Source: an uncultured virus (IMG/VR IMGVR_UViG_3300044630_001076) (Duplodnaviria; Heunggongvirae; Uroviricota; Caudoviricetes; Crassvirales). Taken from it: DNA of 64,000 nt. The first letter of the stretch is position 1; the number at the start of each line of letters is the position of its first letter. Below, piece after piece: positions 8,717 to 58,698 of the stretch. The notes beneath the pieces were generated by a model. The model ran no database searches. It saw only the letters and a list, made by a program, of their open reading frames with translations, and was not told the origin of the DNA. The position numbers were made by a program, and so were the translations under genes. The DNA lies in the IMG/VR virus record IMGVR_UViG_3300044630_001076. One strand, given 5' to 3'.

Positions 8717-10471
8717 ATGAGAAAATTGAAGTTTGTTTGTGCTCAACCTGCCACCACTTTTTACATATGGCAGGTTGAGACAGTAATTAATAATTTCCTA
8801 AAAAATGGAATACACGGTAGTAACATAGATATATTACTTGCCATTACCGATGATATAATTCCAGAAGATTGGGATACACTAAGGAATCACTATAGTAATG
8901 TGAATTTCTTTTTCTACAATGATACCAGGGAGGATAAATCATATCTACCTGGTATTTATTTTTACCTGCTTAAAAAGTATGTTGAGTCAAATGATTTGAC
9001 AAATACTGCACTATTCTTGCATGATAGCGACATCGTGTTTACAAAAAGAGTAGAGTTCTCTAGTATGGTTAATGATGACATTTGGTATATGAGCGATACA
9101 AACAGCTACATAAACTATGATTACATCCAACAAAAAGGTAACCATGTGTATGAGGATATGTGCGACATTATAGGTATAGATAAGTTGATACCTAAACTAA
9201 TGAACTCTAACTCAGGTGGTGCTCAGTATATTGTAAAAAACACAACTGCTAAGTTTTGGGATAAGGTAGAGAAAGACTCTCTAAAGTTATACAACCATTT
9301 CTGTGCTACCGAGCATTTGCATATACAAAAAAATGACCACGACTACCCAATACAAAAATGGACAGCAGGTATGTGGGCTATACTTTGGAATGCATGGTTA
9401 CATGGACACGAAACAAAGGTAGACAGCAGGTTAGATTTTGGATGGAGCACTAACCACATAAGTGATGTAGATAAGTATTGTATTCTGCACAACTCAGGTG
9501 TACTAAGTAATAATGATGGATTGTTTTTCAAGACAGATTACTTGGCTAAGTTGCCATACAAAGAAGATTTAAAAATAAACCAAGATAAGGCATCCTATTA
9601 TTATTGGTTACAAGTGCAAGAGGCTGGATTAAATTCTCCTATGATAAAGAGTAAATCAGGAGACAAAGTGTCTTTTATATGTACGACCTACGGAAGGTTT
9701 AATTGCGTAAGAAGGATTGTTGCACAGTACCACGCACAAACACATAAGAACAAGGAGCTGATTATATTTAATACAGATGTCGATCATCCTTACACTTTAG
9801 GCATAGACGATCCAACAATAGTTGTGGTGAATAATAACATAGACTTTGTTACAAATCAGCCATACACAAACAGAGGTGACATATGCAGAGATGCAATTGT
9901 TTATGCTACAGGTGACTATTTTATGCTTGCAGATGACGATGATATATATCTGCCTTGGCATATGGAGCAAGCTGTAGATGGGATAACGCGAAACAATAAA
10001 GATGCTTGGAAGCCGGAGAAAAGTTTCTATGCAAACATTAATCATCTTGAGATATCTAAGAATGTAATGGAGGCATCTGTTATTGTTAAGATGGACAGGA
10101 TCCGGGAAATTGGATTTAGAAATGACATAACAGGATACGAAGGATTATCTTGGTATATGAAGTTGGCAGCAGAAGGTCAGTTGAATGAGCAGGATACATA
10201 CTATGTTCCTTCATATTGTTTTAATTGGTCTGATCCACAAGAGATTGGTGGGCATAAGCAAAGTGGGCACATTGACGATGTTAACAACTTCGATAACCAT
10301 AAGTTAAATTGTACAGATTATGCTACAGATTTATTAACTCCCATAAACAATAGTGAGCTTGAGCATGAATATTCAAAGTATTACGACTTCTTTATAAACA
10401 ATAAAAATATTTTTAATAATCATTTATTCGAAAAATATATTTCAATGCATTTATTAAAAGATAATCTGTAA
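8717..10471 (+). CDS. Two-domain glycosyltransferase (N: GT-A fold, HPAT/GT95-like; C: GT2)
   Basis: N-domain has CAQPA..YIWQVE, LHDSDIVF (DxD), GGAQY and WTAGMWA. C-domain has VSFICTTYGR, ELIIFN and ADDDDIYLP. Confidence 0.75.
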   Translation: MRKLKFVCAQPATTFYIWQVETVINNFLKNGIHGSNIDILLAITDDIIPEDWDTLRNHYSNVNFFFYNDTREDKSYLPGIYFYLLKKYVESNDLTNTALFLHDSDIVFTKRVEFSSMVNDDIWYMSDTNSYINYDYIQQKGNHVYEDMCDIIGIDKLIPKLMNSNSGGAQYIVKNTTAKFWDKVEKDSLKLYNHFCATEHLHIQKNDHDYPIQKWTAGMWAILWNAWLHGHETKVDSRLDFGWSTNHISDVDKYCILHNSGVLSNNDGLFFKTDYLAKLPYKEDLKINQDKASYYYWLQVQEAGLNSPMIKSKSGDKVSFICTTYGRFNCVRRIVAQYHAQTHKNKELIIFNTDVDHPYTLGIDDPTIVVVNNNIDFVTNQPYTNRGDICRDAIVYATGDYFMLADDDDIYLPWHMEQAVDGITRNNKDAWKPEKSFYANINHLEISKNVMEASVIVKMDRIREIGFRNDITGYEGLSWYMKLAAEGQLNEQDTYYVPSYCFNWSDPQEIGGHKQSGHIDDVNNFDNHKLNCTDYATDLLTPINNSELEHEYSKYYDFFINNKNIFNNHLFEKYISMHLLKDNL

Positions 10472-10495: not shown

Positions 10496-11239
10496 ATGTA
10501 CATAGACAATTGCCCTAAATGTTATACCATTACGTACTCTCCTAAGCAGGGTGGATGGACTTCGTACCATTCATACTCTCCTGATTGGATGGTGGCAATG
10601 AACAATAATCTTTATACCTTTAAAGATGGTAATTTGTATAAGCATAATGCTAATCAAGTTAGAAATAGCTATTACGGCACATTATATCCATCTAAAATAA
10701 CAACCATATTTAACAATGAACCTTCTCAAACAAAGCAGTTTAAAACTATCGCAACTAACTCCACTACAGCGTGGAGTACTATTGTTTCATCTGATCAGGG
10801 TGATGGCTATGTTGATGATAGCAACTATGCTCTAAAAGAAGGCACATTCTATGCTTATATAAGAAGAAATCCAAATGATGATGATTTGTCATTTATTTCA
10901 GCTCAAGGCATAGGGAATGTCACTTTGTATGCTTCCAATGTATTAAACTTTAATTTTAACATTGGGTCTATAGTAAGTTCTGGAGATAGAGTTTTTTGGA
11001 TGAACGGAAATACAATGACTTTCGCAGGATTTGTAACTAGTCATAACAGCAATAGCATTACTATTAATCAAACAGGGATCGCTCCTGCAAATAATAGCTT
11101 TATATTGTATGTAAAAAATAGTGTGGCAGAATCAACTCCAACAAGAGGAACATACTTAGAAGTAGAGTTTACAAATTACGATACGTCATATACAGAAATG
11201 TTTATGGTGACATCTGATGTATTCAAATCATATTCTTAA
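10496..11239 (+). CDS. C-terminal part of tail stabilisation protein, encoded separately
   Basis: TITYSPKQGGWTSYHSYSPDWM..LYTFKDGNLYKH and KEGTFYAYI motifs, usually the end of the stabilisation protein. Confidence 0.65.
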   Translation: MYIDNCPKCYTITYSPKQGGWTSYHSYSPDWMVAMNNNLYTFKDGNLYKHNANQVRNSYYGTLYPSKITTIFNNEPSQTKQFKTIATNSTTAWSTIVSSDQGDGYVDDSNYALKEGTFYAYIRRNPNDDDLSFISAQGIGNVTLYASNVLNFNFNIGSIVSSGDRVFWMNGNTMTFAGFVTSHNSNSITINQTGIAPANNSFILYVKNSVAESTPTRGTYLEVEFTNYDTSYTEMFMVTSDVFKSYS

Positions 11240-11245
11240 TATAAC

Positions 11246-11253
11246 TATCTTTG
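11246..11253 (+). promoter_or_regulatory. Bacteroidetes -7 element (TATCTTTG)
   Basis: TAnnTTTG 3 nt before ATG 11257. Confidence 0.6.
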
Positions 11254-11256
11254 TAA

Positions 11257-11664
11257 ATGGAATTTAATATTAGGTTGCTAAACGACAGCGACTATGATGA
11301 CACGCTAGTTAAATGGTGGAAAGATTGGGGAGGACAGGCACCACCAAAAGATTCATTGCCATTAAATGGAACAGGTGGATTTATGGTATCAAAGGGTGAT
11401 GTAGATATTTGTGCAGGATTTGCATATTTTACAAACTCTGGTATAGCCTATTGTGAATTTGTCGTATCAAATTTTAATTATAGAGAAAAAGACAGAAAAC
11501 AAGCTATAGAAACTCTTATAAATACTATTAGTGAAGCTAGTAGAAATGCAGGATACAAATATATGTGGGTGTCCTCATTTAATAAAAGTTTGGTTAAAAG
11601 ATATGAGGCTTGTGGTTATATTAAAACGCAAGATGATTGCGTAGAAATGATTAAAAAACTATAA
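11257..11664 (+). CDS. GNAT-like acetyltransferase, head of ejection-protein module
   Basis: ICAGFAYFTNS and SLVKRYEACGY pattern; position before internal virion proteins. Confidence 0.6.
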   Translation: MEFNIRLLNDSDYDDTLVKWWKDWGGQAPPKDSLPLNGTGGFMVSKGDVDICAGFAYFTNSGIAYCEFVVSNFNYREKDRKQAIETLINTISEASRNAGYKYMWVSSFNKSLVKRYEACGYIKTQDDCVEMIKKL

Positions 11665-12461: not shown

Positions 12462-13991
12462 ATGGCAGAATTTGCAGGATATATTGGCAATCAATACCCA
12501 CCAACAGATTGGGGCAAGATAGGAGTTAACCTATTGGAGCAATTTGATAAGGAAAATCAAAGAAGAAAGGACGAAAAAGAGAAAATCGATAATGATTATG
12601 CTGAGTCATTTTCTAAGATTGGTGAGTACGAACAAACAACCGACCAGGATGTTAACGAATTTATATATAAAGGCGTAGACGAAGTGCGTAATGGCATTAA
12701 GACTCAATACGATTTACTTAAGAAAGGAGCCATTACTATGGCTGACTATAAGTTATATAAATCAACAGCTATGTCTGATTGGTCTAGTTTAAATAAAGCA
12801 GTAAAAGGATTCGGTGCAACTATTGAGGCAAGTCAAAAACTTATCACAGAAGGTAAAATGTCTGGTCTTGGTCAGTACAACTCATTAAACTTTGCTAAGT
12901 TGGGGGACTTAAAAACAGCCAAGATTATGGTTAACCCTCAGACTGGTCGTATCTATCGTGCAAACATTGATCCTAAGACAGGAAAGATATCATCTCCTGA
13001 TGATGTTTATAGCCCATCTGCTATGATTAATCCAGCTAATTTAGTAGATTTAAAAGTTAATTTGGATGACCAAATTGACCCTTTCTTAAAGCGTTTAGAA
13101 AAGGTTGGTGTTGCTCGTAATATGGGGAATGGTGTTATTGAGGTTGATGAATCAGCTAGAAATAACCCTGCGTTTAAAACAGCATTAGATGCTCAAGTAA
13201 ATGCAGTAACTGCTACTCCTCGTTCAACAACAAGTATCTTAACTGACTATGTCGGAGACTATCAATTCTTTGAGTCTGAGGCTCAGAAAAAAGAGTTGAT
13301 GGCAAAAGGTATTGATGAGGACAAGTTGATTAAAGTACAGCGAAAGAATGGCATCGCAGAACCTATCTTAACCGAGGATCAAGAGAATGTGGCAAAAGAT
13401 TTTGTGCGTACTCAAATTGAAGTAGGTGTTGGTGGTACCGAGAAAATGACAACTCCTTGGAAGCCTAATGCTCCAAGAGTATCACGAGGAGGAGGATCTG
13501 GTGGATCTAAGAAACCAACTCAAGGAGAACAAAATTTAGTGGCCCTTTTTGATAGTACATCTAGTATAATGCAAGATGTTCTTGCAAATGGAATTAATTC
13601 AGAATATGCTAAAGATATACTTAATAATCTGCAAGATGATTATGAGTTATTACAAGGATCAACAATTAAAAAGAATGCTTCTGGAGGAGTGGATGTATTT
13701 AATCACAATAAAGTTAAAGTATATTCAATTAATAATTTAGCTGACTTTTATAGTGTTCTAAATAAAAAAAGCAGAACTCAAGGTATTGCTGATTATAATA
13801 GATATCTACAATTAGCTCAAGGAGGAGGGACTCCTGCACCTGCAAAACCAGCAGCACAGAAGAAACCAGCTGCACCTAAAAAAACTGCAACTATGGTACA
13901 AATTAATGCCATGACGTCAGCACAAAGAGGTGGGCTTAGTGCAACAGAATATGCTAATTACTTAAAGACTCAAGGTTATACAATAAAATAA
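12462..13991 (+). CDS. Internal virion / ejection protein
   Basis: 509 aa, helical, TDWGKIG N-terminal motif; between the small ejection protein and the giant protein. Confidence 0.55.
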   Translation: MAEFAGYIGNQYPPTDWGKIGVNLLEQFDKENQRRKDEKEKIDNDYAESFSKIGEYEQTTDQDVNEFIYKGVDEVRNGIKTQYDLLKKGAITMADYKLYKSTAMSDWSSLNKAVKGFGATIEASQKLITEGKMSGLGQYNSLNFAKLGDLKTAKIMVNPQTGRIYRANIDPKTGKISSPDDVYSPSAMINPANLVDLKVNLDDQIDPFLKRLEKVGVARNMGNGVIEVDESARNNPAFKTALDAQVNAVTATPRSTTSILTDYVGDYQFFESEAQKKELMAKGIDEDKLIKVQRKNGIAEPILTEDQENVAKDFVRTQIEVGVGGTEKMTTPWKPNAPRVSRGGGSGGSKKPTQGEQNLVALFDSTSSIMQDVLANGINSEYAKDILNNLQDDYELLQGSTIKKNASGGVDVFNHNKVKVYSINNLADFYSVLNKKSRTQGIADYNRYLQLAQGGGTPAPAKPAAQKKPAAPKKTATMVQINAMTSAQRGGLSATEYANYLKTQGYTIK

Positions 13992-26279: not shown

Positions 26280-27728
26280 TTACTTATTTATATATGCAAA
26301 TATATGAGCAATTACATCTACCGTCCACCCATTTCCGAGCATCTTATATCGCTGTGCATTTGACACATGAGCAGTATAATTGTCCTTTACCGTCTGCAAA
26401 CGCTCGCATTCTACCGGTGTAAGTTTTCTGATCCTAGAAGAATTAATCATTAAGTCCGACTTATCTTTGCACAATGCTGGAGATATACCTTCGGTATCAT
26501 ACACCCTGTTTTGTTGGTAAGGCTGTGTGCCATTGTTACTTTCTCCGGATTGATTAAGTTGCCTAACCTCTCTAACCAATTGACCACAAGACTCATCCTC
26601 TCTTGCTCTTGCTGCCAAAGTTCCTGACTTCCCATTCTTTCGATCACGGAATCCTTCATCGGTTCTATAGTCACATCCAACAACCACTAAATTATCTTTT
26701 TGTACTGTCGTTAAACAATTAGTCTTATTGTCATTTCTTGGCTCTAGTTGTTGAATGTTTTTCCCATTTTCATCTGGTCTTCCTCTCATTGCAACAATCT
26801 CAACTGCCTGGCAGTTAATTGTATCCAAGCAATATGTCTTGCCATCTGCTCTTGATAAAGGACCAGCACCACCTGCGTTCTTGTTGTTCTTTAAAGATGG
26901 TCTATCTGGACTACGTCTTTGTAATGAGTGAACAATATGTGTATGTCCTCCAGCATCCGTACGAGTAGACAATGTGACCGATTTTTCGGTATGTATACTT
27001 TGATTATAACAATCAAGCATTGTTCCTTCAACTAAATCATCGTGAGCTCCTGTTAGTTGCTTAAGTCTTCTATTGGTCTCAACACTAACATAATACTTAT
27101 GGTCTACCTCAGGCTCTAATACATCTTTTAATAGTATGCCACGATCCTCAGGTTGTTGTATACCACACTTAAGTTCACCAAACAATCCTTCTTTAACTGC
27201 ACCAATATTTGTCCAATACAAACGCTTACGATTCTGAGCAGATAGTAAAGCCGAGTTAATCATAATGGGATCGATACCAATTGCTCCAGTTAAAACTTCC
27301 TTCCATTTCTGAGACATCATTACATTCTCCAATAGAAAGTATGTTGGCTTTACTTCATTAAGAAGTCTCATATATTCCCAAAACAAATAAGACTGACCTT
27401 CAAACTCAAATCCCTCATCCTTTAATCGCAGGTAGTGGTTAAGAGTTAATATATCTTGGCTATCTTTTGTTGACATACCTTTACGCTTGCCAGCAAAACT
27501 AAACGATTGGCAAGGTGATCCACCAATAAGTAAATCAATCTTAGGAAGGTCTGATCCCTTCACATCAACCACGGATCCGAGTTGTATTGTATCCGGGTAG
27601 TTTGCCATTGTTACTTGTATGGCATACTTATCAATCTCAGAAGCGAAGTACTTGTCGACTTTTATTCCTGCTCTTTCTAGAGCTTGTTGTCCACAGGACA
27701 TCCCATCAAATAGGCTTAGTACATTCAT
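26280..27728 (-). CDS. DNA (cytosine-5) methyltransferase with long variable region
   Basis: LSLFDG, GGSPCQ, LLENV, QNRKRLYW, RKLTPVECERLQ and YKMLGNG motifs. Confidence 0.92.
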   Translation of the reverse strand: MNVLSLFDGMSCGQQALERAGIKVDKYFASEIDKYAIQVTMANYPDTIQLGSVVDVKGSDLPKIDLLIGGSPCQSFSFAGKRKGMSTKDSQDILTLNHYLRLKDEGFEFEGQSYLFWEYMRLLNEVKPTYFLLENVMMSQKWKEVLTGAIGIDPIMINSALLSAQNRKRLYWTNIGAVKEGLFGELKCGIQQPEDRGILLKDVLEPEVDHKYYVSVETNRRLKQLTGAHDDLVEGTMLDCYNQSIHTEKSVTLSTRTDAGGHTHIVHSLQRRSPDRPSLKNNKNAGGAGPLSRADGKTYCLDTINCQAVEIVAMRGRPDENGKNIQQLEPRNDNKTNCLTTVQKDNLVVVGCDYRTDEGFRDRKNGKSGTLAARAREDESCGQLVREVRQLNQSGESNNGTQPYQQNRVYDTEGISPALCKDKSDLMINSSRIRKLTPVECERLQTVKDNYTAHVSNAQRYKMLGNGWTVDVIAHIFAYINK

Positions 27729-43720: not shown

Positions 43721-45265
43721 ATGATAGTTAAAGAAATCTCATTCGGCAAAGAAGGCCGAGACAAATTAATCAAAGGTGTGGATGCGGTGGCGAACGCTGT
43801 CGGCTCTACATTAGGGGCACGAGGCAGGACTGTGCTCATCGAGTCAGAGCAACACGTTGGAGGGATCACGGTCACCAAGGATGGCGTGACAGTTGCTAAG
43901 TCAATTAACTTAATGGACCCGGCTGAGAACCTAGCGGTGATGATCATGCGTGAGGCATCAGAGAAGACTGCCAACTCGGCAGGCGATGGGACAACGACAA
44001 GTATGGTGCTGGCACAGGCCATTATTCATGAGGCCATGGATCAGATTGAGCCAAGCGATAACTTGACACAAGTCTTGCGTGATATACAGGAGGCGAGCAC
44101 AGAGGTGCTGGATAAGTTAGATCAGATGTCGGTTGAGATTACTGATGACAAGCTTAACTCAGTTGCTACAATCTCTGCCAATGGTGACACGGACACAGGG
44201 TCAATAATTGCTGATGCGTACAGTAAGGTGGGGCTGACCGGAGTGGTGACAGTTGAGCCATCCAAGGATGCGTTGACATACTCGGAGATTATTAGTGGCA
44301 TGAAGATAGACAGGGGGTTCACGAGCAAGTACTTTGTGACTGACCATAAGAAGCAAGAGTGCGTGCTAGACGATCCATACATCTTGGTGACAGACCAGCC
44401 TATTAGTCATATTAATGACATCTTCCCAATACTTGAGTTTATATTGGAGGGTAACAAGTCATTGCTAATTATTGGCGAGCTAGAGGAGAATGCTCTGAAT
44501 ACGCTGAACGCCAACAAGATTAAGGCGAAGCTAAAGGTGTGCTCTATTATCCCTCCGCAGTTTGGCTACAAAAAGCATCAGTTGATGGCAGACATTGCTC
44601 ATGCTACAGGTGCTAAGTATTTCTCAGAGCAGACAGGGGACAACTTGGCGATGGTGAGCATCGATGACCTAGGTCGTGCTAAGAAGATTATTAGTGGTCG
44701 GTTCAATACTTTGATCCGTGAGCCAGGTGGCTTGGTGGATGAGCGAGTGGCAGAGCTACAAGAGCAATTAAATGTGGAGACGAGCGGGATCGAGAAGGAC
44801 TTCTTGAAGGAGCGAATAGCTAATCTTGGTGGTGGGGTTGCGGTGATCTATGTTGGGGCTCAGTCTGACATTGAGCAGAAGGAGAAGAAGGACAGAGTGG
44901 ACGATGCGGTGTGTGCTGTTAGAGCTGCGTTAGAAGAGGGCATCCTACCAGGTGGTGGGGTGGCACTAAAAGATGTGGCGATTGGGATGGAGAAAACAAA
45001 CAAGAAGGGCGAGTCTATATTGATGCTTGCACTTATTAGTCCAATGATGAAGATTATTGATAATGCAGGTGGATGGTCAGGAGAGATGAAAGATTATCGC
45101 AAAAATGGCATTGGTGTAAACGTAGTCAATATGACCATTTGTAATATGATGGACATGGGCATCATCGACCCGACTAAGGTGACAAAAGAGGCTGTGCGAA
45201 ATGCGGTATCAGTTGCTACAACTTTATTATCTACAGACACAGTTATAACTAATATCAGAGCTTAA
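43721..45265 (+). CDS. groEL: Chaperonin GroEL (phage-encoded)
   Basis: TKDGVTVAK, AGDGTTT, ISANGD, GMKIDRG, EEGILPGGG and GIIDPTKV motifs; no GGM tail. Confidence 0.95.
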   Translation: MIVKEISFGKEGRDKLIKGVDAVANAVGSTLGARGRTVLIESEQHVGGITVTKDGVTVAKSINLMDPAENLAVMIMREASEKTANSAGDGTTTSMVLAQAIIHEAMDQIEPSDNLTQVLRDIQEASTEVLDKLDQMSVEITDDKLNSVATISANGDTDTGSIIADAYSKVGLTGVVTVEPSKDALTYSEIISGMKIDRGFTSKYFVTDHKKQECVLDDPYILVTDQPISHINDIFPILEFILEGNKSLLIIGELEENALNTLNANKIKAKLKVCSIIPPQFGYKKHQLMADIAHATGAKYFSEQTGDNLAMVSIDDLGRAKKIISGRFNTLIREPGGLVDERVAELQEQLNVETSGIEKDFLKERIANLGGGVAVIYVGAQSDIEQKEKKDRVDDAVCAVRAALEEGILPGGGVALKDVAIGMEKTNKKGESILMLALISPMMKIIDNAGGWSGEMKDYRKNGIGVNVVNMTICNMMDMGIIDPTKVTKEAVRNAVSVATTLLSTDTVITNIRA

Positions 45266-51446: not shown

Positions 51447-53996
51447 ATGGCAAGAATTAGTACATATCCAAACGACACTAATGTTATAGGTGCAGATAAA
51501 TGGATTGGTTCAGATGCAAATAATAACAATCAAACCAAGAACTTTACAGCCGATGCAGTAGCCGCCTATTTTAACAGAGCAAGTGTTATTGACACAGGTC
51601 AGTTCTCTTGGAATTTTGTTCCATATTCAACTACAACTGTTCAGTCTGATAAAACATTTTCTTTAGTTGGATATACTAACACTAGTATTAATGTTAATCA
51701 GTTAGAAGGTATTTTAAAAGTATCTTTCTTAACTCTTGCTAATACAACTCCAGGAACATTTATTCAAGAGCAATGGTTAAACAAAATCATTCTTGTTCAT
51801 ATTCCTAATTCACCTAGTGCATACGGTTTATATAAGATTACAAACATTACCTTAACTGGTAATTTCTATTATTTAACTACTGATTTACAGCAAGCAAATA
51901 CAGGAAATATTTTAGCTAATAATCCTGTTGCTTTTGGTCTTTTTGAAGGGGTATCAGGAACTAGTGGTATCTCAGGATCATCAGGTACATCGGGAACTAG
52001 TGGTATCAATGGAACCATGGGTACTTCTGGAACAAGTGGTACGACAGGTACTTCTGGATCGTCTGGATTTACAGGAACATCAGGTACATCAGGTACGACA
52101 GGTACGTCAGGCACAACAGGTACAAGTGGTATATCAGGTGATAGATATCGTGGAACATCAACAACTTCGTTTACATTAGGAACAGCAGGTACTATTACAA
52201 CGCAGACTGGTTTGTCGTTTACTACTGCTCAATCTATTATTATTGTTTACAATGCTAGTAATTACCAAGAATCAGAGATTATATCTTATGATCCAGGTAA
52301 TGGACTATTAACATTTGCGGCACCTAATAGAACAGTTGGTTCAGGAACATATAGTTCTTGGACAATAAACTTGGATGGTGCAAGTGGTGGTGATGGATCA
52401 TCAGGTACTTCAGGTACAAGTGGATTAAATGGTACAAGCGGTGTAAACGGAACTAGTGGTATTACAGGAACTTCGGGTACTACAGGTACGTCAGGGTCTT
52501 CGGGTACTACAGGTACATCGGGTACATCAGGTGCAACAGGAACTTCGGGAACAACAGGAACCTCAGGTATTAATGGTACAAGTGGGTCAAGTGGTTTTAA
52601 TGGGTCAAGTGGTACATCAGGTTCTAGTGGACTTACAGGAACATCAGGTATCTCCGGATCTTCAGGAACCTCAGGTGCAAATGGTATAGCAGCTGGTAGA
52701 ACTTATTATTTCAACCAATCTCAAAACTCAGATGTATCACCATATAAGGTGTTATCAACTGATCCATCAGGAGCAGCACAGCAAACTATTACCAAGACAT
52801 TAACTAATACACAGCAAAATGTATTAGTTCAGCAGTTTTTGACTCCTTCATTAGGATTTTCTGTTATTCCAGGTGGTGTACAGCGTTTTCATTGTCATTT
52901 CTTAAAACCAGCATCTAATGATAATATTCAAACATATGTAACTATTGAACTTGCAAATTCAGCAGGAGTAGGATATGGAACGATATTAAGTACAGGTAAT
53001 TCTGAAGTTGGATGGGTAGATGCATCAACTCCTGTTGAAACAACAGTTGATTTAACATTACCAACAACAACCATTCTGACTACAGATAGAATGATTGTTA
53101 AGATTTACCTTAATAATGATGATAGCACAACACATAATGTAACTTGGTATACAGAAGGTACATCTTATTATTCATTTGTAATTACATCTGTTGGTGCAAC
53201 TGCTGGTACATCTGGAGTAAATGGTACATCAGGTACTAGCGGAGTTAGTGGAACAACAGGCACAAGTGGAACGTCTGGATTAACAGGAACATCAGGTGTT
53301 AATGGAACGAGTGGTACAGATGGTACGTCTGGTACAAGTGGTGCTACAGGAATTAGTGGAACTAGTGGTAGTAGTGGGACATCTGGAATAAGTGGAACAA
53401 GTGGTACTTCTGGAGTAAATGGAACATCAGGAGTAAGTGGTACATCTGGAGTAAGCGGAACATCTGGTGTTAATGGGGCGAACGGAACAAGTGGTGTTAG
53501 CGGAACATCAGGAGTTAATGGGGCGAACGGAACATCGGGCGTTAATGGAACTTCAGGCGTCAACGGTGCAAATGGAACATCGGGCGTTAATGGTGCTAAT
53601 GGTACTTCAGGAACATCAGGTTTGAATGGTGCAGGAGCAACCATATTTTATAGTACCTCAGGAACAGGATATACCCCTGGAGCTCAAGGTATTAGAGTTG
53701 TACCTGTTGGTATTTTAAGCATCAATACAACATATATTATTAGTGTTACTATTACCGGATCATCAAGATGGGCATCAGGTGCCTTTTTATGGAGGCCAAT
53801 TGCTAATAGTCAACTTAGTAACTATGGAGTTGCAGCAGTATATTTCCCAACAAACACAAACATTAACGGACTTGCTTTATACGCAGTATCTACAACAGGT
53901 GGTGGTGGCGGAGCTAGTGATGTAGTTGTTAACTCAAATGCATTTGACATGACCGGTGCCAACTGGAGCTCCACAGTTAGAACAATAGGTAATTAA
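51447..53996 (+). CDS. Fibre protein with Gly-Thr-Ser (Gly-X-Y, collagen-like) repeats
   Basis: MARISTY N-terminus; three GTS/GTT/GVN tracts separated by globular domains; TATTTTTG -7 motif at 51413-51420. Confidence 0.75.
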   Translation: MARISTYPNDTNVIGADKWIGSDANNNNQTKNFTADAVAAYFNRASVIDTGQFSWNFVPYSTTTVQSDKTFSLVGYTNTSINVNQLEGILKVSFLTLANTTPGTFIQEQWLNKIILVHIPNSPSAYGLYKITNITLTGNFYYLTTDLQQANTGNILANNPVAFGLFEGVSGTSGISGSSGTSGTSGINGTMGTSGTSGTTGTSGSSGFTGTSGTSGTTGTSGTTGTSGISGDRYRGTSTTSFTLGTAGTITTQTGLSFTTAQSIIIVYNASNYQESEIISYDPGNGLLTFAAPNRTVGSGTYSSWTINLDGASGGDGSSGTSGTSGLNGTSGVNGTSGITGTSGTTGTSGSSGTTGTSGTSGATGTSGTTGTSGINGTSGSSGFNGSSGTSGSSGLTGTSGISGSSGTSGANGIAAGRTYYFNQSQNSDVSPYKVLSTDPSGAAQQTITKTLTNTQQNVLVQQFLTPSLGFSVIPGGVQRFHCHFLKPASNDNIQTYVTIELANSAGVGYGTILSTGNSEVGWVDASTPVETTVDLTLPTTTILTTDRMIVKIYLNNDDSTTHNVTWYTEGTSYYSFVITSVGATAGTSGVNGTSGTSGVSGTTGTSGTSGLTGTSGVNGTSGTDGTSGTSGATGISGTSGSSGTSGISGTSGTSGVNGTSGVSGTSGVSGTSGVNGANGTSGVSGTSGVNGANGTSGVNGTSGVNGANGTSGVNGANGTSGTSGLNGAGATIFYSTSGTGYTPGAQGIRVVPVGILSINTTYIISVTITGSSRWASGAFLWRPIANSQLSNYGVAAVYFPTNTNINGLALYAVSTTGGGGGASDVVVNSNAFDMTGANWSSTVRTIGN

Positions 53997-54007
53997 AAAA
54001 TAAAAAT

Positions 54008-54343
54008 ATGTATCCGATATATACTTGGACAGTTACAAGAATGCAAGTTTTGCTTGATATTGACTCAATGCTTGATGTTGTATATAATGTAGATTTTATT
54101 GTTACGGCTGAAAAGGAAGGAATAAAACTTTATTCTAAAGACTTTAGCGTATATCTTCCACAACCATTAGTTGGCACAGATTACATTGCATATGATGATT
54201 TAACTAATGACATTGTTATTGGTTGGTGTCAGCAAGTTCTTGGACCTGAATTTACAGAAGGTGTTTATACTAGGTTAAATGATAGAATTGATTTAATTTT
54301 GTCTAGCCAAGACCCAATAGCAAAACCTTTGCCTTGGTCATAA
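54008..54343 (+). CDS. Fibre-associated small protein
   Basis: YTWTV...IAYDDLT.D.VIGW pattern, usual after phage fibre genes. Confidence 0.55.
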   Translation: MYPIYTWTVTRMQVLLDIDSMLDVVYNVDFIVTAEKEGIKLYSKDFSVYLPQPLVGTDYIAYDDLTNDIVIGWCQQVLGPEFTEGVYTRLNDRIDLILSSQDPIAKPLPWS

Positions 54344-54349
54344 AATCCA

Positions 54350-55201
54350 ATGGAAAGACTTTTTTTTCAGAGCTCAATGCCAAGAGCAGGTAGTACTGTT
54401 CTTCAAAATATATTGGCTCAAAATCCTGATATATACGCCACCCCAACAAGTGGCGTATTTGATTTACTTCAATCAGCGAAGTTTACTTATAGCACAGCTA
54501 GAGAGTTCTTAGCACAAGATCCAATTTTAATGAATAAGGCTTTCTTATCTTTCTGCAGAGGAGGGATAGAAAACTTTTATACTCCACTTACAGATAAAAA
54601 GTATGTCATAGATAAATGTCGTGGGTGGGGACTTTCTTATGAGTTTATTAACAAGATACAAGACGATCCTAAAATTATTTGTATTGTAAGGGACTTGCGT
54701 GATATATTCGCATCATTAGAGAAGAAATATAGGCAGTATCCTGAGATGCACAACCCCATGGTTAATTGGCATAATCTAGAAGGAACGACAACACAGAAGC
54801 GTGTTGAGCTGTGGGAGAAAACTGTTCCACTTGGAATATCCTTAGATAGTCTTAGTGAAGTGTTTAGAATGGGTCTAAATAATAATATTCATTTTATAAA
54901 ATATGAGGACTTATGCAATGACCCATCATTAGAGATGACTAAGATATATCAATTCTTTGGTATACCATATTACCAACACGACTTTGATAATATTGAACAG
55001 ATTACACAAGAGGATGATTCTTTGTATGGGCCATTTGGTGACCACAAAATACAACGCAAATTAGAAAAAGTTTCTTCTCGTGCTGAAGATATTTTGGGTA
55101 AAGACGTTTGCAATTATATCTACAATAAGCATAACTGGTATTTTAATAAATTTAATTATACTCATGATAATAGCTTTGATCGGACAGCCTGGGGCAGGTA
55201 A
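54350..55201 (+). CDS. Sulfotransferase family protein
   Basis: 5'-PSB loop SMPRAGST, IDKCR, 3'-PB VRDLRDIFAS and IKYEDL motifs. Confidence 0.85.
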   Translation: MERLFFQSSMPRAGSTVLQNILAQNPDIYATPTSGVFDLLQSAKFTYSTAREFLAQDPILMNKAFLSFCRGGIENFYTPLTDKKYVIDKCRGWGLSYEFINKIQDDPKIICIVRDLRDIFASLEKKYRQYPEMHNPMVNWHNLEGTTTQKRVELWEKTVPLGISLDSLSEVFRMGLNNNIHFIKYEDLCNDPSLEMTKIYQFFGIPYYQHDFDNIEQITQEDDSLYGPFGDHKIQRKLEKVSSRAEDILGKDVCNYIYNKHNWYFNKFNYTHDNSFDRTAWGR

Positions 55202-55589
55202 AACTACGCTTGCTAAAGAATTATTAAAACACAAAGATTATTATCACATCGATGGTGATGATCTTCGTGAGTTATTTAATAATAAAGATTATAGCAGAGA
55301 AGGTAGATTAAAAAATCTAAACAGAGCTAGTGACATAGCCCACTATCTTAGTAGAGAAAAGCCTGTTATACTTTCCTTGATTTATCCTTATCAAGAAGCA
55401 AGAGACTATTTAAATGCATTGCATAGCGATGTCAAATGGTGCTGGCTTAAAACAGATGAGCAAAGAAAAAATCCAGAACTTCAGGTTGATGATTTCGAGA
55501 ACCCTACAAACTCTATAAACTCTATAGAGATTAATACTAGCGAATCAATCCGTTCTTGTTTATTACATCTATTACTTTTTGTGCCTTAA
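55164..55589 (+). CDS. cysC: Adenylyl-sulfate (APS) kinase-like protein
   Basis: GQPGAGKTT, IDGDDLR, DYSREGR..N, SLIYPY and DFENP motifs; start MIIALIG. Confidence 0.75.
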   Translation: MIIALIGQPGAGKTTLAKELLKHKDYYHIDGDDLRELFNNKDYSREGRLKNLNRASDIAHYLSREKPVILSLIYPYQEARDYLNALHSDVKWCWLKTDEQRKNPELQVDDFENPTNSINSIEINTSESIRSCLLHLLLFVP

Positions 55590-57579
55590 TGGATGTCTGA
55601 CATTCAAACATTCGATCAGTATCTTTGTGAGCTGGGCACCAATTCCAATCGCCTTTATCAAATGTTAAATTAGGATCGTTCCAACATCCGTTGCATACTG
55701 ATTTATTTTCGACACGAAAACATTGAAATTCGTGCCATTGCACGGAAAAGTTTGCAATCATAACCACAGGTTTCCCTAATCCCCAAGCAAGCCAGCTAAC
55801 TCCACTACCAAGTCCAATAAAGAAATCACTATTGTCTATGTAGCACATTGTATCCTGAATATTAGGACTGATTATCTGCTCGCAATTATCGAATGGGTTT
55901 TCTTCTAATGATACATTAATTACCTTGTACCCTTTCTCGTGCAGATAGTTAATAACTTCTTGCCATCCTTCTTTGGTCCAAAACTTACATCCGGCTGTTG
56001 AGTTAGTTGCAATAGTAACTGTCTTCTGCAGTATCAATTTTACATTAGTAGGTTTCCATTTAAGATTAGGCTTAATCTCCTCATACTCTAATCCAAGAAT
56101 GTTAGTCGCAGCTTGTTGTAATGGTATGGTATTTGGCAATACAGGCTCCTTGTTTGAATCGTAGAACCAACCTATGTTATATTGTGCATGAATATTCTCA
56201 ACTGTTGATCCGGGCTCTACTATTTCTATCTCAGGATAGTCAAGTATACTGTTCCAAAAACTTGACAAAATTACTTTGCAGTTATGCTTTTTCTGAAACT
56301 CTAAAGCGTAAGGTGCCCAAGCAATATTGTCACCAAGTGATTTGCTGTCGATACAAATCAAAACACGCTTTCCTTCTAAATTAAGCGTACTTTCATATAT
56401 CTTCTTCCCATGTTCGTATACTTCAAGCGACCATTTCTCGTAGTATTGTCTGTTTAATTTTGCCCATGAATTGTTTTGAATTGTGTCCTCATAAACAACT
56501 TCACCTGTACCTGTTTTCCATACTAGGTGGAACCAAGATTTGACAGCAGATTTTATTTCAAAATAAGGGCCGTTGACATTATGTTCTATTATCTGAACGT
56601 CTTGATCTTCGATTGGATTTGATAAGCAATCTATGTAAGTAGTACATAGTTGATTTGCAAATTCCTCTGAATCATCATAAGTAGGTGTTATATAATTTGC
56701 CTTGATTGTATTTAAGTCTGTATCAATAGGCTGTATGTAAGCCGCATATCTTCCGTGATACTGTGGTAGGTTGTGAGCAATGATTGGCAAGTTGTATGCA
56801 ATAGCTTCACGCAATGCAAGTGGATTGCATTCAATTGTGCTATTAAACATAAATACGTTAGCCTCCTTTAAAAATGAGTCCACATCATCACGCTCTCCTA
56901 ATACTCTAACATTTGGTGGCAAATCATTCATCAAAGGCTCCCAATAGTGTTGGAAATTACCAGCTTGATTTCCAATAAAATAAAATGTCCAATCAGGATT
57001 CTTTCTTGCAATCTCTATGCCCTCAGCTTGATTCTTTCCTGGTGTCCACAAACCAACATTAACGACATACTTTGTGTCTTCTTGTTTTTCAGATTCTTTA
57101 GGGTCAATAGGGAATTCAATAACATACTTTAACTTTGTAGGCATATTCTTAAATGTAACCTCTTTATGATAACTAGAGCAGAATGCATATGCATCAGGAT
57201 GAAACTTTCTTTCTTTATCCGGATTAAAAAATACATCGTGACAAGTCTCAATAATTCTATATACTCTATTGGTATTATAGAGTTCACTCATCACCTCGTT
57301 GTCGAATCTCTCAGCCACATCATGTAGGTGAATGATATCAGGTTTAATATTTGCTACTATGTCAAGTAGTTCTGATTTGGTATCACCAAGAGTATATACT
57401 TTGTTACCAAGTATTTCTTTTATCGCATTACGATGCACTACGAAATCAGCTGTGTAGAACTGATATTCTACTACGTGTATATCGTACATTTCGTCTAGTA
57501 ATTGTATCTGCTTAAGAAGAAAAGATGGCATCCCTCCTGTAGATAAGTGAGGGGCTAAGTATAAAATCTTGGATTTCAT
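55537..57579 (-). CDS. GT4-like domain fused to Aah/TibC-family O-heptosyltransferase
   Basis: N: HLSTGGMP, KNQ and ECNPLALREA. C: SKSLGDNIAW, FIGLGSGVSWLAW, and CNGCWND...WCP...FEC iron-finger cysteines. Confidence 0.85.
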   Translation of the reverse strand: MKSKILYLAPHLSTGGMPSFLLKQIQLLDEMYDIHVVEYQFYTADFVVHRNAIKEILGNKVYTLGDTKSELLDIVANIKPDIIHLHDVAERFDNEVMSELYNTNRVYRIIETCHDVFFNPDKERKFHPDAYAFCSSYHKEVTFKNMPTKLKYVIEFPIDPKESEKQEDTKYVVNVGLWTPGKNQAEGIEIARKNPDWTFYFIGNQAGNFQHYWEPLMNDLPPNVRVLGERDDVDSFLKEANVFMFNSTIECNPLALREAIAYNLPIIAHNLPQYHGRYAAYIQPIDTDLNTIKANYITPTYDDSEEFANQLCTTYIDCLSNPIEDQDVQIIEHNVNGPYFEIKSAVKSWFHLVWKTGTGEVVYEDTIQNNSWAKLNRQYYEKWSLEVYEHGKKIYESTLNLEGKRVLICIDSKSLGDNIAWAPYALEFQKKHNCKVILSSFWNSILDYPEIEIVEPGSTVENIHAQYNIGWFYDSNKEPVLPNTIPLQQAATNILGLEYEEIKPNLKWKPTNVKLILQKTVTIATNSTAGCKFWTKEGWQEVINYLHEKGYKVINVSLEENPFDNCEQIISPNIQDTMCYIDNSDFFIGLGSGVSWLAWGLGKPVVMIANFSVQWHEFQCFRVENKSVCNGCWNDPNLTFDKGDWNWCPAHKDTDRMFECQTSIKAQKVIDVINKNGLIR

Positions 57580-57909: not shown

Positions 57910-58114
57910 AATATCTATTGGACCTGATTACAAGAATGCAATGAACTATACTCATGGGCAAGAAGTCCTTGATAAGTCATATCGTATTCATTTGATCACA
58001 CAAAAGGATGATGGTACAGTTAGTATTTTTATTGAGAAGAATACTGAAGTTATTCTTTGGAAATCAATTGCATCAACTACACCATTTGTCCTCGAGTATA
58101 ATATCGAGTTCTAA
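57896..58114 (+). CDS. Conserved hypothetical protein (IRKISIGPDYK)
   Basis: Motif usual upstream of terminase in this phage group. Confidence 0.65.
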   Translation: MLIRKISIGPDYKNAMNYTHGQEVLDKSYRIHLITQKDDGTVSIFIEKNTEVILWKSIASTTPFVLEYNIEF

Positions 58115-58698
58115 TGAAATCTCCATTTTATTTTATCGTAAAGCCAAAAGATGGTAAGCGATATGATGATGAGCGTAATGGCATCATTATATCTACGTCT
58201 AAGGAAGATTATAAAGCCTCCACTCGTGAGGCTGTTGTAATTGAAACGCCTATTGGATACGATGGTCCTGTTCAGATTGGCGATACAGTCATCGTTCACC
58301 ACAACACATTTAAGTACTACTACGATATGCGTGGTCGAGAGAAGTCATCGTGGAATTATTTCCGTGATGATTTATTTTTTATCGATGATCCATACGCATA
58401 CAAGCATGAGTGTGATACATGGAAAGGAATTGGCCGGTATGTGTTTGTTTCTCCTGTCGAGAACGACCATACTGGCATCACTACCATTGATGCAGAAAAG
58501 CCCCTTGTTGGCAAGATAAAGTATGCGAATGATGAAGTACTTGACCTTGGTCTTAAAGTGGGCGATATGGTCACGTTTGAGCCTGAATCAGAGTATCCAT
58601 TTTGGATTGATGGCGAGAAGGTTTACCGTATGTACACAAAGAACTTAACAATCATATTAGATGAGCAAGATAACAGAGTTAAAGAAGCGAATAATTGA
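58114..58698 (+). CDS. GroES-fold-like protein
   Basis: FIVKP...IGDTVIVHH...GLKVGD.V.F...Y...IDGEK.YRM. Confidence 0.55.
   Translation: MKSPFYFIVKPKDGKRYDDERNGIIISTSKEDYKASTREAVVIETPIGYDGPVQIGDTVIVHHNTFKYYYDMRGREKSSWNYFRDDLFFIDDPYAYKHECDTWKGIGRYVFVSPVENDHTGITTIDAEKPLVGKIKYANDEVLDLGLKVGDMVTFEPESEYPFWIDGEKVYRMYTKNLTIILDEQDNRVKEANN

Follow-up and report, generated by a model that had tools for sequence, protein, structure and literature searches.

The 64,000-nucleotide stretch of DNA analysed here (hereafter the window) comes from an uncultured virus of the Crassvirales (IMG/VR record IMGVR_UViG_3300044630_001076) and carries a five-gene cassette at positions 51447-57579. The cassette encodes a tail fibre with Gly-X-Y repeats, a small DUF7936 protein, a sulfotransferase, a kinase resembling adenosine 5'-phosphosulfate (APS) kinase, and, on the opposite strand, a fusion of a glycosyltransferase family 4 (GT4) domain to a TibC/Aah-like domain. 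The cassette appears to be a virion-decoration module at the 3' side of the tail fibre gene whose functions would include both glycosylation and sulfation of the fibre, a reading to which we give a probability of roughly 0.55. Glycosylation of the fibre is the better-supported half and seems probable from the comparison of related loci. Sulfation is weaker and is proposed tentatively, with the odds somewhat against it. The most probable acceptor is the fibre of the phage itself, because GT4-TibC enzymes accompany Ser/Thr-rich repeat fibres in different phage lineages. An earlier note on this DNA had described the fibre and the three enzyme genes, and that description stands: all five genes look intact, and only the start of the kinase gene has been corrected. 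The features are listed in Table 1.

Table 1. Features of the cassette and other named features, with positions in the window.
Feature	Position	Strand	Size or residues	Basis and remarks
Tail fibre/appendage	51447..53996	+	849 aa	Open reading frame, Gly-X-Y scan, Pfam Collagen; proposed acceptor
Gly-X-Y tract 1 of fibre	51948..52145	+	residues 168-233	22 triplets, 35 Ser/Thr at X/Y
Gly-X-Y tract 2 of fibre	52377..52691	+	residues 311-415	35 triplets, 51 Ser/Thr at X/Y
Gly-X-Y tract 3 of fibre	53205..53636	+	residues 587-730	48 triplets, 59 Ser/Thr at X/Y
DUF7936 / phrog_7802 small protein	54008..54343	+	111 aa	Pfam, PHROG; directly after fibre gene
PAPS-type sulfotransferase, TPST-like fold	54350..55201	+	283 aa	Pfam, PHROG, AlphaFold model
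APS-kinase-like P-loop kinase	55164..55589	+	141 aa	MIIALIGQPGAGKT; Pfam, AlphaFold model; proposed PAPS supplier
GT4+TibC-like fusion	55537..57579	-	680 aa	Convergent to fibre
GT4 (Glycos_transf_1) domain of fusion	56575..57579	-	residues 1-~335	EX7E at E250...E258
TibC/Aah-like (TIGR04414) domain of fusion	55537..56538	-	residues 348-680	
crAss muzzle C-terminal domain	10496-11239			Profile match
C5 cytosine DNA methylase	26280-27728			Profile match
Phage GroEL	43721-45265			Profile match
GroES-like gene	58114-58698			Profile match; just upstream of the large terminase gene

The tail fibre and its Gly-X-Y tracts

The fibre is composed of an N-terminal virion-anchor segment, three Gly-X-Y tracts with globular segments between them, and a C-terminal domain of 119 amino acids. 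Residues 1-41 are 44% identical (E 7e-7) to the syntenic 648-amino-acid fibre of the uncultured podophage MW202828.1. The tracts are uninterrupted and together hold 105 triplets, of which 47 are GTS; Pro occurs in none of them, and Ser or Thr occupies 145 of the 210 X and Y positions. A six-frame scan of the whole window found no other Gly-X-Y run of at least five triplets, so the tracts are not an artefact of composition. Against Pfam Collagen (PF01391), the fibre scores 143.4 bits with a cut-off of 27.2, and it matches PHROG tail-fibre families, mainly through the collagen repeats. A collagen-like trimeric helix is predicted. The DUF7936 protein is probably associated with the fibre, not with the enzymes, because its homologues also follow the fibre in relatives without a TibC-like gene (loci L096, L140, L147 and L149).

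The GT4-TibC fusion enzyme

The N-terminal half of the fusion matches the Pfam families PF00534 (Glycos_transf_1; 47.5 bits, cut-off 26.4) and PF13692 (41.2 bits, cut-off 27). A match to Pfam Glyco_transf_9 (24.9 bits) was also found in the fusion, and the nearest named NCBIfam families of the GT4 domain are glycolipid glycosyltransferases, with weak scores of 34 and 30 bits. The EX7E motif is the signature of GT4 enzymes, and E250-x7-E258 is invariant in 81 of 81 phage fusions. The C-terminal half scores 248.2 bits against the NCBIfam model TIGR04414 (hepto_Aah_TibC; cut-off 200), with residues 348-675 covering positions 28-373 of the 374 in the profile. It also matches the TibC structure (PDB 4rap) with an E-value of 1e-48 over TibC residues 60-385.

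TibC is described in its structural study as using Asp110 as catalytic base, Thr226, Lys230 and Trp305 for contacts with the phosphate and sugar of the donor, and Cys339, Cys342, Cys358 and Cys370 for an iron finger (PMC4358343). The same source states that Arg286 contacts N1 of the adenine, which is offered there as the basis of ADP-sugar specificity, and that the enzyme forms a ring-shaped dodecamer and requires its N-terminal beta-barrel (residues 1-97) for activity (PMC4358343). The phage enzyme keeps most of these features. D417 aligns with Asp110 and is Asp in 80 of the 81 phage fusions, with one gap. T528, K532 and W596 correspond to Thr226, Lys230 and Trp305 and do not vary among the 80-81 fusions with a residue at the respective position. 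The four cysteines of the CxxC...C...C iron finger (C629, C632, C648 and C660) are present in all 81 fusions; their integrity had been claimed in the earlier note, and iron binding is predicted. The fusions are only 55-96% identical, yet the catalytic residues do not vary. One feature is changed, and a second may be. T577 stands at the position of Arg286, in an alignment that is gap-free up to the conserved FFIGL motif, and Thr is found there in 79 of the 81 fusions. The match to the family begins at profile position 28 and the alignment with the TibC structure at its residue 60, so that the N-terminal beta-barrel may be incomplete or replaced; the GT4 domain precedes it.

As judged from these alignments, both glycosyltransferase domains keep their catalytic signatures. 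By sequence, the fusion truly belongs to the bacterial autotransporter heptosyltransferases (BAHT), but it departs from that family in the adenine-contact Arg and in the autotransporter acceptor. Profile scans of the window gave no match to autotransporter families, and the neighbouring repeat protein is the collagen-like fibre. According to the TibC study, the only known substrates of the TibC/Aah family are repeat proteins that are glycosylated on Ser in the cytoplasm (PMC4358343).

Association with Ser/Thr-rich repeat fibres

Relatives of the TibC-like domain are encoded on at least 296 IMG/VR contigs, and the family comprises 2465 protein clusters at an E-value of 1e-10 or better. In bacterial genomes, a single-sequence search with the enzyme yielded only four loci, all on contigs of metagenome-assembled genomes (MAGs). 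The locus counts given below refer to the best 80 matches per search, ranked by similarity to the window, and IMG/VR includes near-duplicate contigs. Open reading frames (ORFs) were called naively, the TibC-like domain, the sulfotransferase and the kinase were detected by single-sequence phmmer, and many loci stop short of the full context.

The GT4 and TibC parts form one ORF in all of the best 80 loci (of 296), some with extra N-terminal domains (950-1495 amino acids). A protein with at least 8 Gly-X-Y triplets is present in 47 of the 80 loci. A collagen-like gene with at least 20 triplets is present in 40, and in 38 of those 40 it is placed as in the window, downstream of the enzyme gene and convergent with it. 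The tracts carry 60-96% Ser/Thr in X and Y and are nearly free of Pro. TibC loci without Gly-X-Y are often short, and the long ones frequently hold other Ser/Thr arrays, such as TPTQTPTETPT-type arrays (L050, L051, L052, L056, L064 and L069) and YadA-head-like GGxxNxASGxxS fibres with an endosialidase-chaperone-like tail at the C-terminus (L070 and L078).

The two YadA-head-like fibres (L070:13791-17318 and L078:17105-20977) are 1175-1290 amino acids long, Cys-rich, and consist almost wholly of ~14-residue GGxxNxASGxxSxV repeats. Both adjoin a GT4-TibC fusion, a sulfotransferase and a kinase.

Among loci of at least 15 kb, a Ser/Thr-rich repeat protein was found in 35 of 42 TibC-anchored loci and in 0 of 17 TibC-less loci anchored on the large terminase (TerL). 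Sulfotransferase-anchored loci of the same length hold a Ser/Thr-rich Gly-X-Y protein in 10 of 13 cases with TibC and in 1 of 32 without it. The few collagen-like proteins at TibC-less loci are mostly poor in Ser/Thr (fraction 0.29 in L227, 0.04 in L243, and 0.06 in L205 and L230).

A lineage-matched comparison used 44 distinct TerL relatives, each with at least 7.5 kb upstream of TerL. Nineteen had both TibC and a Gly-X-Y fibre, 3 had TibC alone, none had Gly-X-Y alone, and 22 had neither (Fisher p 2e-9, a value inflated by relatedness). On a quick, midpoint-rooted TerL tree of 41 rows, at least three changes of TibC state are required. L096, the sister of L029, is the lone TibC-negative row in a TibC-positive clade, and its fibres of 1121 and 607 amino acids have no Gly-X-Y. 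L122 is the lone TibC-positive row in a TibC-negative clade, and its 904-amino-acid fibre has 134 triplets, whereas the 332-amino-acid fibre of its neighbour L116 has none. From these patterns, TibC and Gly-X-Y come and go in step among the phages of the TerL family. The pairing also recurs on contigs of 57-116 kb without TerL similarity. Since 30 of the 80 TibC loci share this TerL, many of the loci are close relatives.

The donor sugar

Heptose had been named as the sugar in the earlier note, and this part of the proposal is not supported by the results. Family profile scans found no heptose-pathway genes among window ORFs of at least 110 amino acids. None of 151 genomes of the likely host family reaches the cut-off of the heptose-7-phosphate kinase model TIGR02198; the best score is 296 bits against 345. 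That set is the family of G001, which holds L164, titled as a Lutibacter MAG. Outside the window's clade, the position of Arg286 is occupied by Arg in L165, L399, L401 and L402, by Thr in L162 and L403, and by Ala in L163. Of the contigs with a TibC-like gene, only G165 also has a strong RfaE-like gene (318.6 bits), and its enzyme is of the Arg type; this sample consists of nine sequences with one clear heptose-gene case. ADP-heptose is doubtful as donor because Thr577 is conserved, the phage has no heptose genes in the scans above, the likely host family has no sampled genome over the TIGR02198 cut-off, and the heptose-gene case is Arg-type. The donor in this clade is probably not ADP-heptose, as far as a small sample and an inferred host allow.

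The sulfotransferase and the kinase

The sulfotransferase matches PF00685 (Sulfotransfer_1, 64.1 bits) and PF13469 (Sulfotransfer_3, 63.1 bits), both over the cut-off, and phrog_27463 with an E-value of 7e-45. Its donor would be 3'-phosphoadenosine 5'-phosphosulfate (PAPS). The 5'-phosphosulfate-binding motif (P11-R12-x-G14-S15-T16) and the 3'-phosphate-binding motif (R114-D-x-R117...S122) show little or no variation among 40 homologues. They align with PRSGTT and RDGR...S of the tyrosylprotein sulfotransferase TPST1, as does a conserved Lys, and by sequence both PAPS-binding motifs are kept. The AlphaFold model has a mean confidence (pLDDT) of 87.9. Its top structural matches are seven TPST1/2 entries (Z 19.4-20.1, root-mean-square deviation (rmsd) 3.5-4.0 A over 249-254 residues), ahead of OLS/CurM (Z 15.8) and the heparan sulfate sulfotransferases (Z at most 13.6). 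Foldseek gives an E-value of 1e-8 and TM scores of 0.64-0.66 against TPST. A single-sequence search of the PDB with the sulfotransferase returned nothing useful; the profile of the 40 phage homologues has TPST1 as its best PDB match (E 8.6e-8). On its model, the phage enzyme has a TPST-like fold; the residues that face the TPST 'GEE' segment in the profile alignment (see below) set it apart from a true TPST.

The kinase gene most likely starts at ATG 55164, as in 37 homologues, and not at GTG 55080 (listed ORF 55080-55589). The last 53 nucleotides of the kinase gene are shared with the 3' end of the convergent fusion gene. The protein scores 44.4 bits against Pfam APS_kinase (PF01583, cut-off 21.1), covering only positions 4-98 of the 152 in the profile, and its best PDB sequence matches are APS kinases. 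In structural searches with the AlphaFold model (pLDDT 91.1), APS kinases fill the first 21 places (Z 18.1-20.3, rmsd 1.5-2.3 A, 127-139 of 141 residues), and gluconate kinase comes next (Z 18.0). The functional motifs of APS kinases are the P-loop, DGD, an Arg/aromatic/Arg/Asn set of APS contacts, (I/V)SPY and the lid. GQPxxGKT, DGD, R35, G47-R48 and N51 are invariant in 38 homologues. The 141-amino-acid protein has the fold, as modelled, and several of the motifs of an APS kinase.

Relatives of the sulfotransferase are encoded on 130 IMG/VR contigs. The kinase gene adjoins that of the sulfotransferase in 68 of the best 80 loci (of 130), usually overlapping its stop codon. A conserved protein of ~290 amino acids is encoded just upstream in ~66 of the 80 loci (70 when weaker or more distant matches are counted) and has no Pfam match even at an E-value of 5. 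A nucleotidyltransferase resembling nicotinamide mononucleotide adenylyltransferase (NMNAT; PF01467, assigned in L222) is found at 55 of the 80 loci. Within the TerL family, the pair occurs in scattered tree rows (the window and L178, L008, L036, and L222 with L223), always between the fibre and the GroES-like gene. On this distribution, the sulfotransferase and the kinase form a mobile unit of their own within the fibre region, only loosely tied to the glycosyltransferase. Its acceptor could be a fibre protein, a glycan on the fibre, or something else.

In L222, the ~290-amino-acid protein is encoded at 9124-9999 and a 125-amino-acid NMNAT/cytidylyltransferase-like protein just downstream of the pair at 11222-11599. 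The two occupy the same positions in most of the loci L168-L245, and both are missing from the window's nearest relatives. L222 also has, at 12603-13076 between the sulfation genes and TerL, a gene for a 157-amino-acid protein resembling 2-oxoglutarate (2OG)-Fe(II) oxygenases (25.7 bits, slightly short of Pfam's threshold of 27). Enzymes of the 2OG-Fe(II) oxygenase type include protein hydroxylases.

Proposed mechanism and alternative explanations

Decoration of the fibre would begin in the cytoplasm of the infected cell, where the TibC-like domain would put the first sugar on Ser and Thr of the Gly-X-Y tracts, with 145 candidate hydroxyls per chain. The fused GT4 domain would then add a second sugar. 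The phage kinase would turn host APS into PAPS. With this PAPS, the TPST-like sulfotransferase would modify the same fibre, the sulfate going either to the newly made glycan or straight to the polypeptide. Only 34 of the 61 genomes sampled from the likely host family have a match over the cut-off of the APS kinase model TIGR00455, so that a kinase of its own could assure the phage of PAPS in any host that makes APS. In its fullest form, the product would be a sulfated glycoprotein fibre with a non-heptose disaccharide on up to 145 Ser/Thr per chain, and thus a proteoglycan-like, polyanionic tail appendage. This complete picture is rather doubtful. A role of such a fibre as bait for polysaccharide-foraging Bacteroidetes, suggested in the earlier note, is speculative, and the literature search turned up no published account of it.

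Several results weigh against the combined reading. Every step past the intact-looking domains is inferred from gene neighbourhood. Among the TerL relatives, L018, L021 and L074 have TibC without a Gly-X-Y fibre; the fibre gene of L018 and L021 is perhaps cut off, and that of L074 is complete, with 1715 amino acids, and not collagen-like. The earlier note had named linkage of the enzymes to such fibres in related phages as a check. TibC does track Ser/Thr fibres, as the lineage-matched counts indicate, but the reverse fails. IMG/VR contigs were chosen with a degenerate nucleotide motif encoding five Gly-Thr-(Ser/Thr) triplets, giving a sample of 76 loci on 67 contigs among the matches listed. 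A TibC-like gene lies within 10 kb on only 7 of these 67 contigs. Whole records were searched for 18 of the other contigs, and 5 of them have a TibC-like gene: four exceed the cut-off, and the fifth reaches 193 bits. Among these 5 are 2 of the 4 records with an estimated completeness of at least 80%. Three more Gly-Thr-Ser contigs are TibC-positives from other locus sets (L049, L080 and L185). By these counts, the association is one-way: TibC-like enzymes go with Ser/Thr-repeat fibres, and many such fibres exist without the enzyme. This fits optional decoration. With respect to the claim that the phage glycosylates its own Ser/Thr-rich fibre, the comparison favours the fibre as acceptor, and the support is comparative throughout.

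The same counts bear on the suggestion that the sugars stabilise a Pro-free helix. As a general need, this is weakened, and a general requirement of glycosylation for folding Pro-free Gly-Thr-Ser helices was rejected, as most sampled fibres have no TibC-like gene nearby.

The sulfation half meets further difficulties. The fibre tracts contain no Tyr. In the profile alignment, P32-T33-S34, invariant in the phage sulfotransferase family, faces 'eet' of TPST1. The 'GEE' segment of TPST presumably holds the catalytic Glu, with which an invariant Thr of the phage enzymes is aligned. The kinase reaches only 41 bits against TIGR00455 (cut-off 138.7), and it has IYPY, with Tyr in place of the Ser of the APS-kinase ISPY motif, where six aligned homologues (e.g., L181 and L187) have VSPY. 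It is also without the C-terminal lid, at 141 amino acids against 172-208 in solved APS kinases. No ATP sulfurylase was found in the window. TibC lies within 10 kb in only 20 of the 80 sulfotransferase loci. With this count, and with a fold nearest to protein tyrosine rather than carbohydrate sulfotransferases, the idea that the sulfate is placed on a glycan is not supported.

In a separate explanation, which we regard as unlikely, the targets are split. The GT4-TibC enzyme would glycosylate the fibre, and the pair would be an unrelated mobile module at the same hot spot 3' of the fibre gene, sulfating another virion protein, a host envelope component or a small molecule. The 60 of 80 sulfotransferase loci without TibC within 10 kb and the scatter of the pair across the TerL tree agree with this, as do L222 and L223, where the pair stands at the corresponding genome position and both TibC and Gly-X-Y are missing. 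The pair also mostly has its own partners, the ~290-amino-acid and NMNAT-like proteins, both absent from the window, and the single Ser/Thr-rich Gly-X-Y protein among the 32 long TibC-less sulfotransferase loci points the same way. However, the pair lies directly behind a large fibre-type ORF (same strand, at least 800 amino acids) in 23 of the 28 loci having 6 kb on both sides, and the sulfotransferase fold is closest to protein-sulfating enzymes. In addition, a protein with a 60-residue window of at least 50% Ser/Thr is encoded in 10 of the 32 long TibC-less sulfotransferase loci, against 0 of 17 TerL-anchored controls.

It is quite improbable that the enzymes are instead directed at the host, where they would remodel surface glycans or glycoproteins during infection and so block superinfection or the re-adsorption of progeny to debris. 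Serotype-converting phage enzymes are a precedent for such remodelling, and surface-modifying accessory genes often adjoin fibre or tailspike genes. The absence of the enzymes from the nearest GenBank relative, MW202828.1, is accessory-island behaviour, and the weak matches of the GT4 domain to glycolipid glycosyltransferases would also suit this explanation. On the other side, TibC presence tracks the phage's own fibre type even between sister phages, a link that host remodelling does not predict. Family profile scans found no integrase among window ORFs of at least 110 amino acids, and the three enzymes have no obvious signal peptide or membrane segment as judged by eye on the sequences. Characterised members of the TibC family all act on proteins, according to the TibC study (PMC4358343). 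Inherited synteny within a few lineages, without functional meaning and with possibly inactive enzymes, is very improbable. It would be compatible with the 30 TibC loci that share TerL and with promoter and terminator scans at the level of shuffled sequence. The invariance of catalytic residues in fusions only 55-96% identical argues against it, and so do the recurrence of the pairing on TerL-dissimilar contigs and the joint gain and loss of TibC and Gly-X-Y within the TerL family.

Relation to known systems and significance

The TibC-TibA and Aah-AIDA-I systems of E. coli (BAHT; PDB 4RAP/4RB4) are true sequence relatives, with the catalytic Asp, Thr226, Lys230, Trp305 and the iron finger shared. 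As in the cassette, a cytoplasmic enzyme is encoded beside a long Ser-rich repeat protein. The phage enzyme differs in that it is fused behind a GT4 domain, with the N-terminal beta-barrel apparently incomplete or replaced, and in having Thr at Arg286, so its donor may differ from ADP-heptose. It is also phage-encoded, and its candidate acceptor is a collagen-like fibre rather than an autotransporter beta-helix.

Mycobacteriophages reportedly encode glycosyltransferases near their structural genes that modify their own virion proteins. These enzymes are said to belong to other families and to act on the C-terminal tails of capsid and tail-tube proteins, with no TibC-like enzyme, collagen-like acceptor or sulfation. 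To our knowledge, experimental evidence for the decoration of phage particles comes only from mycobacteriophage capsids and tail tubes. The repeats of BclA are proline-rich, whereas the tracts in the window are Pro-free; in addition, the BclA glycosyltransferases are unrelated to TibC, and BclA is found on the spore surface and not on a virion. BclA of Bacillus and BclA3 of C. difficile, the latter with SgtA, are described in two studies as Thr-rich Gly-X-Y exosporium proteins that are O-glycosylated by a dedicated glycosyltransferase (PMC8968730, PMC7157674). The sugars of collagen-like spore proteins are believed there to aid the hydration network of the triple helix (PMC8968730).

The phage sulfotransferase has TPST1/2 (PDB 5wrj, 3ap1-3) as its best structural and profile match, at an identity of ~15%. 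It differs in the invariant P-T-S facing the GEE segment, and the proposed acceptor tracts lack the Tyr on which a TPST would act. For donor supply, the comparison is with APS kinase and PAPS synthase, on which the kinase model superposes at 1.6 A; but the phage protein is short and lid-less, and it falls short of the equivalog cut-off of NCBIfam.

Few studies have addressed how phage particles are decorated after translation. Our literature search, which subscription journals lay mostly outside of, found no paper that links a TibC-like enzyme to phage fibres or describes sulfation of phage virions. Databases automatically name the TibC-like phage family "autotransporter O-heptosyltransferase". 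If the proposed reading is correct, receptor-binding fibres are coated with sugars by a gene family that is very common in environmental phages, and the coating would affect host range, adsorption, stability, and recognition by grazers or the immune system. The fibre sequence alone would then not predict the surface chemistry of the fibre. Sulfation would give the first sulfated virion component of a bacteriophage, and the fibre would be a new class of acceptor for both enzyme families. The Arg-to-Thr switch at the adenine contact offers a way to test what governs the choice of donor in the BAHT family, and the 141-amino-acid kinase is a minimal APS-kinase scaffold.

The phage, its likely host and other genes of the window

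The phage is ~65 kb in size, and the window covers most of its contig; the contig of the fusion protein itself is 65,017 bp. TerL of the window matches phrog_6681, and the portal protein matches phrog_6547. TerL is 44-67% identical to that of Flavobacterium "elemo", Cellulophaga, Tenacibaculum and Maribacter phages and of MW202828.1. The phage is a member of the crAss-related group infecting Flavobacteriia, a crAss-related podophage with probable hosts of the Flavobacteriaceae type. The host family was taken from the hosts of the TerL relatives, which all belong to Flavobacteriaceae genera, and from a 64%-identical match on the Lutibacter MAG contig (L164).

In MW202828.1, the gene order is an M15 endolysin, a small gene and the 648-amino-acid fibre without Gly-X-Y, followed directly by the GroES-like gene and TerL. 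Because MW202828.1 keeps the anchor and the synteny without the enzymes or Gly-X-Y, the distal fibre and the enzymes form an exchangeable block behind a conserved anchor. A megablast search of the cassette against GenBank phages gave no match. A tblastn search with the fusion against the same set found only four records, in each of which the match is confined to the TibC half. Three of them come from two huge uncultured phages and the fourth from Microcystis phage Mel-JY01. By this search, the cultured TerL relatives are without the cassette.

In the cultured cyanophage Mel-JY01 of Microcystis (PP395634.1, 7435-8424), the TibC-like domain is 41% identical (E 1e-69) and lies in a gene annotated as methyltransferase FkbM; this phage may be a usable experimental system.

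No tRNA genes were found in the window. The promoter scan gave 32 promoter-like sites against a shuffled mean of 31.2, with Bacteroidetes-type promoters outside the models of the scan, and the terminator scan gave 6 terminator-like sites against 3.4 in shuffled sequence, which was judged to be no signal. A gene of the structural block at 3741-8702 (+) encodes a 1653-amino-acid protein with a mucin-like Thr/Pro tract near its C-terminus (8373-8492, TSTPGISISCITPTTTIAPTTTVAPTTTTIAPTTTVTPTT). The gene directly after it, at 8717-10471 (+), encodes a 584-amino-acid protein with a glycosyltransferase family 2 (GT2) domain (PF00535, 24.4 bits, cut-off 23.3). The Thr/Pro-tract protein and the GT2 protein may be a second pair of enzyme and acceptor in the same phage.

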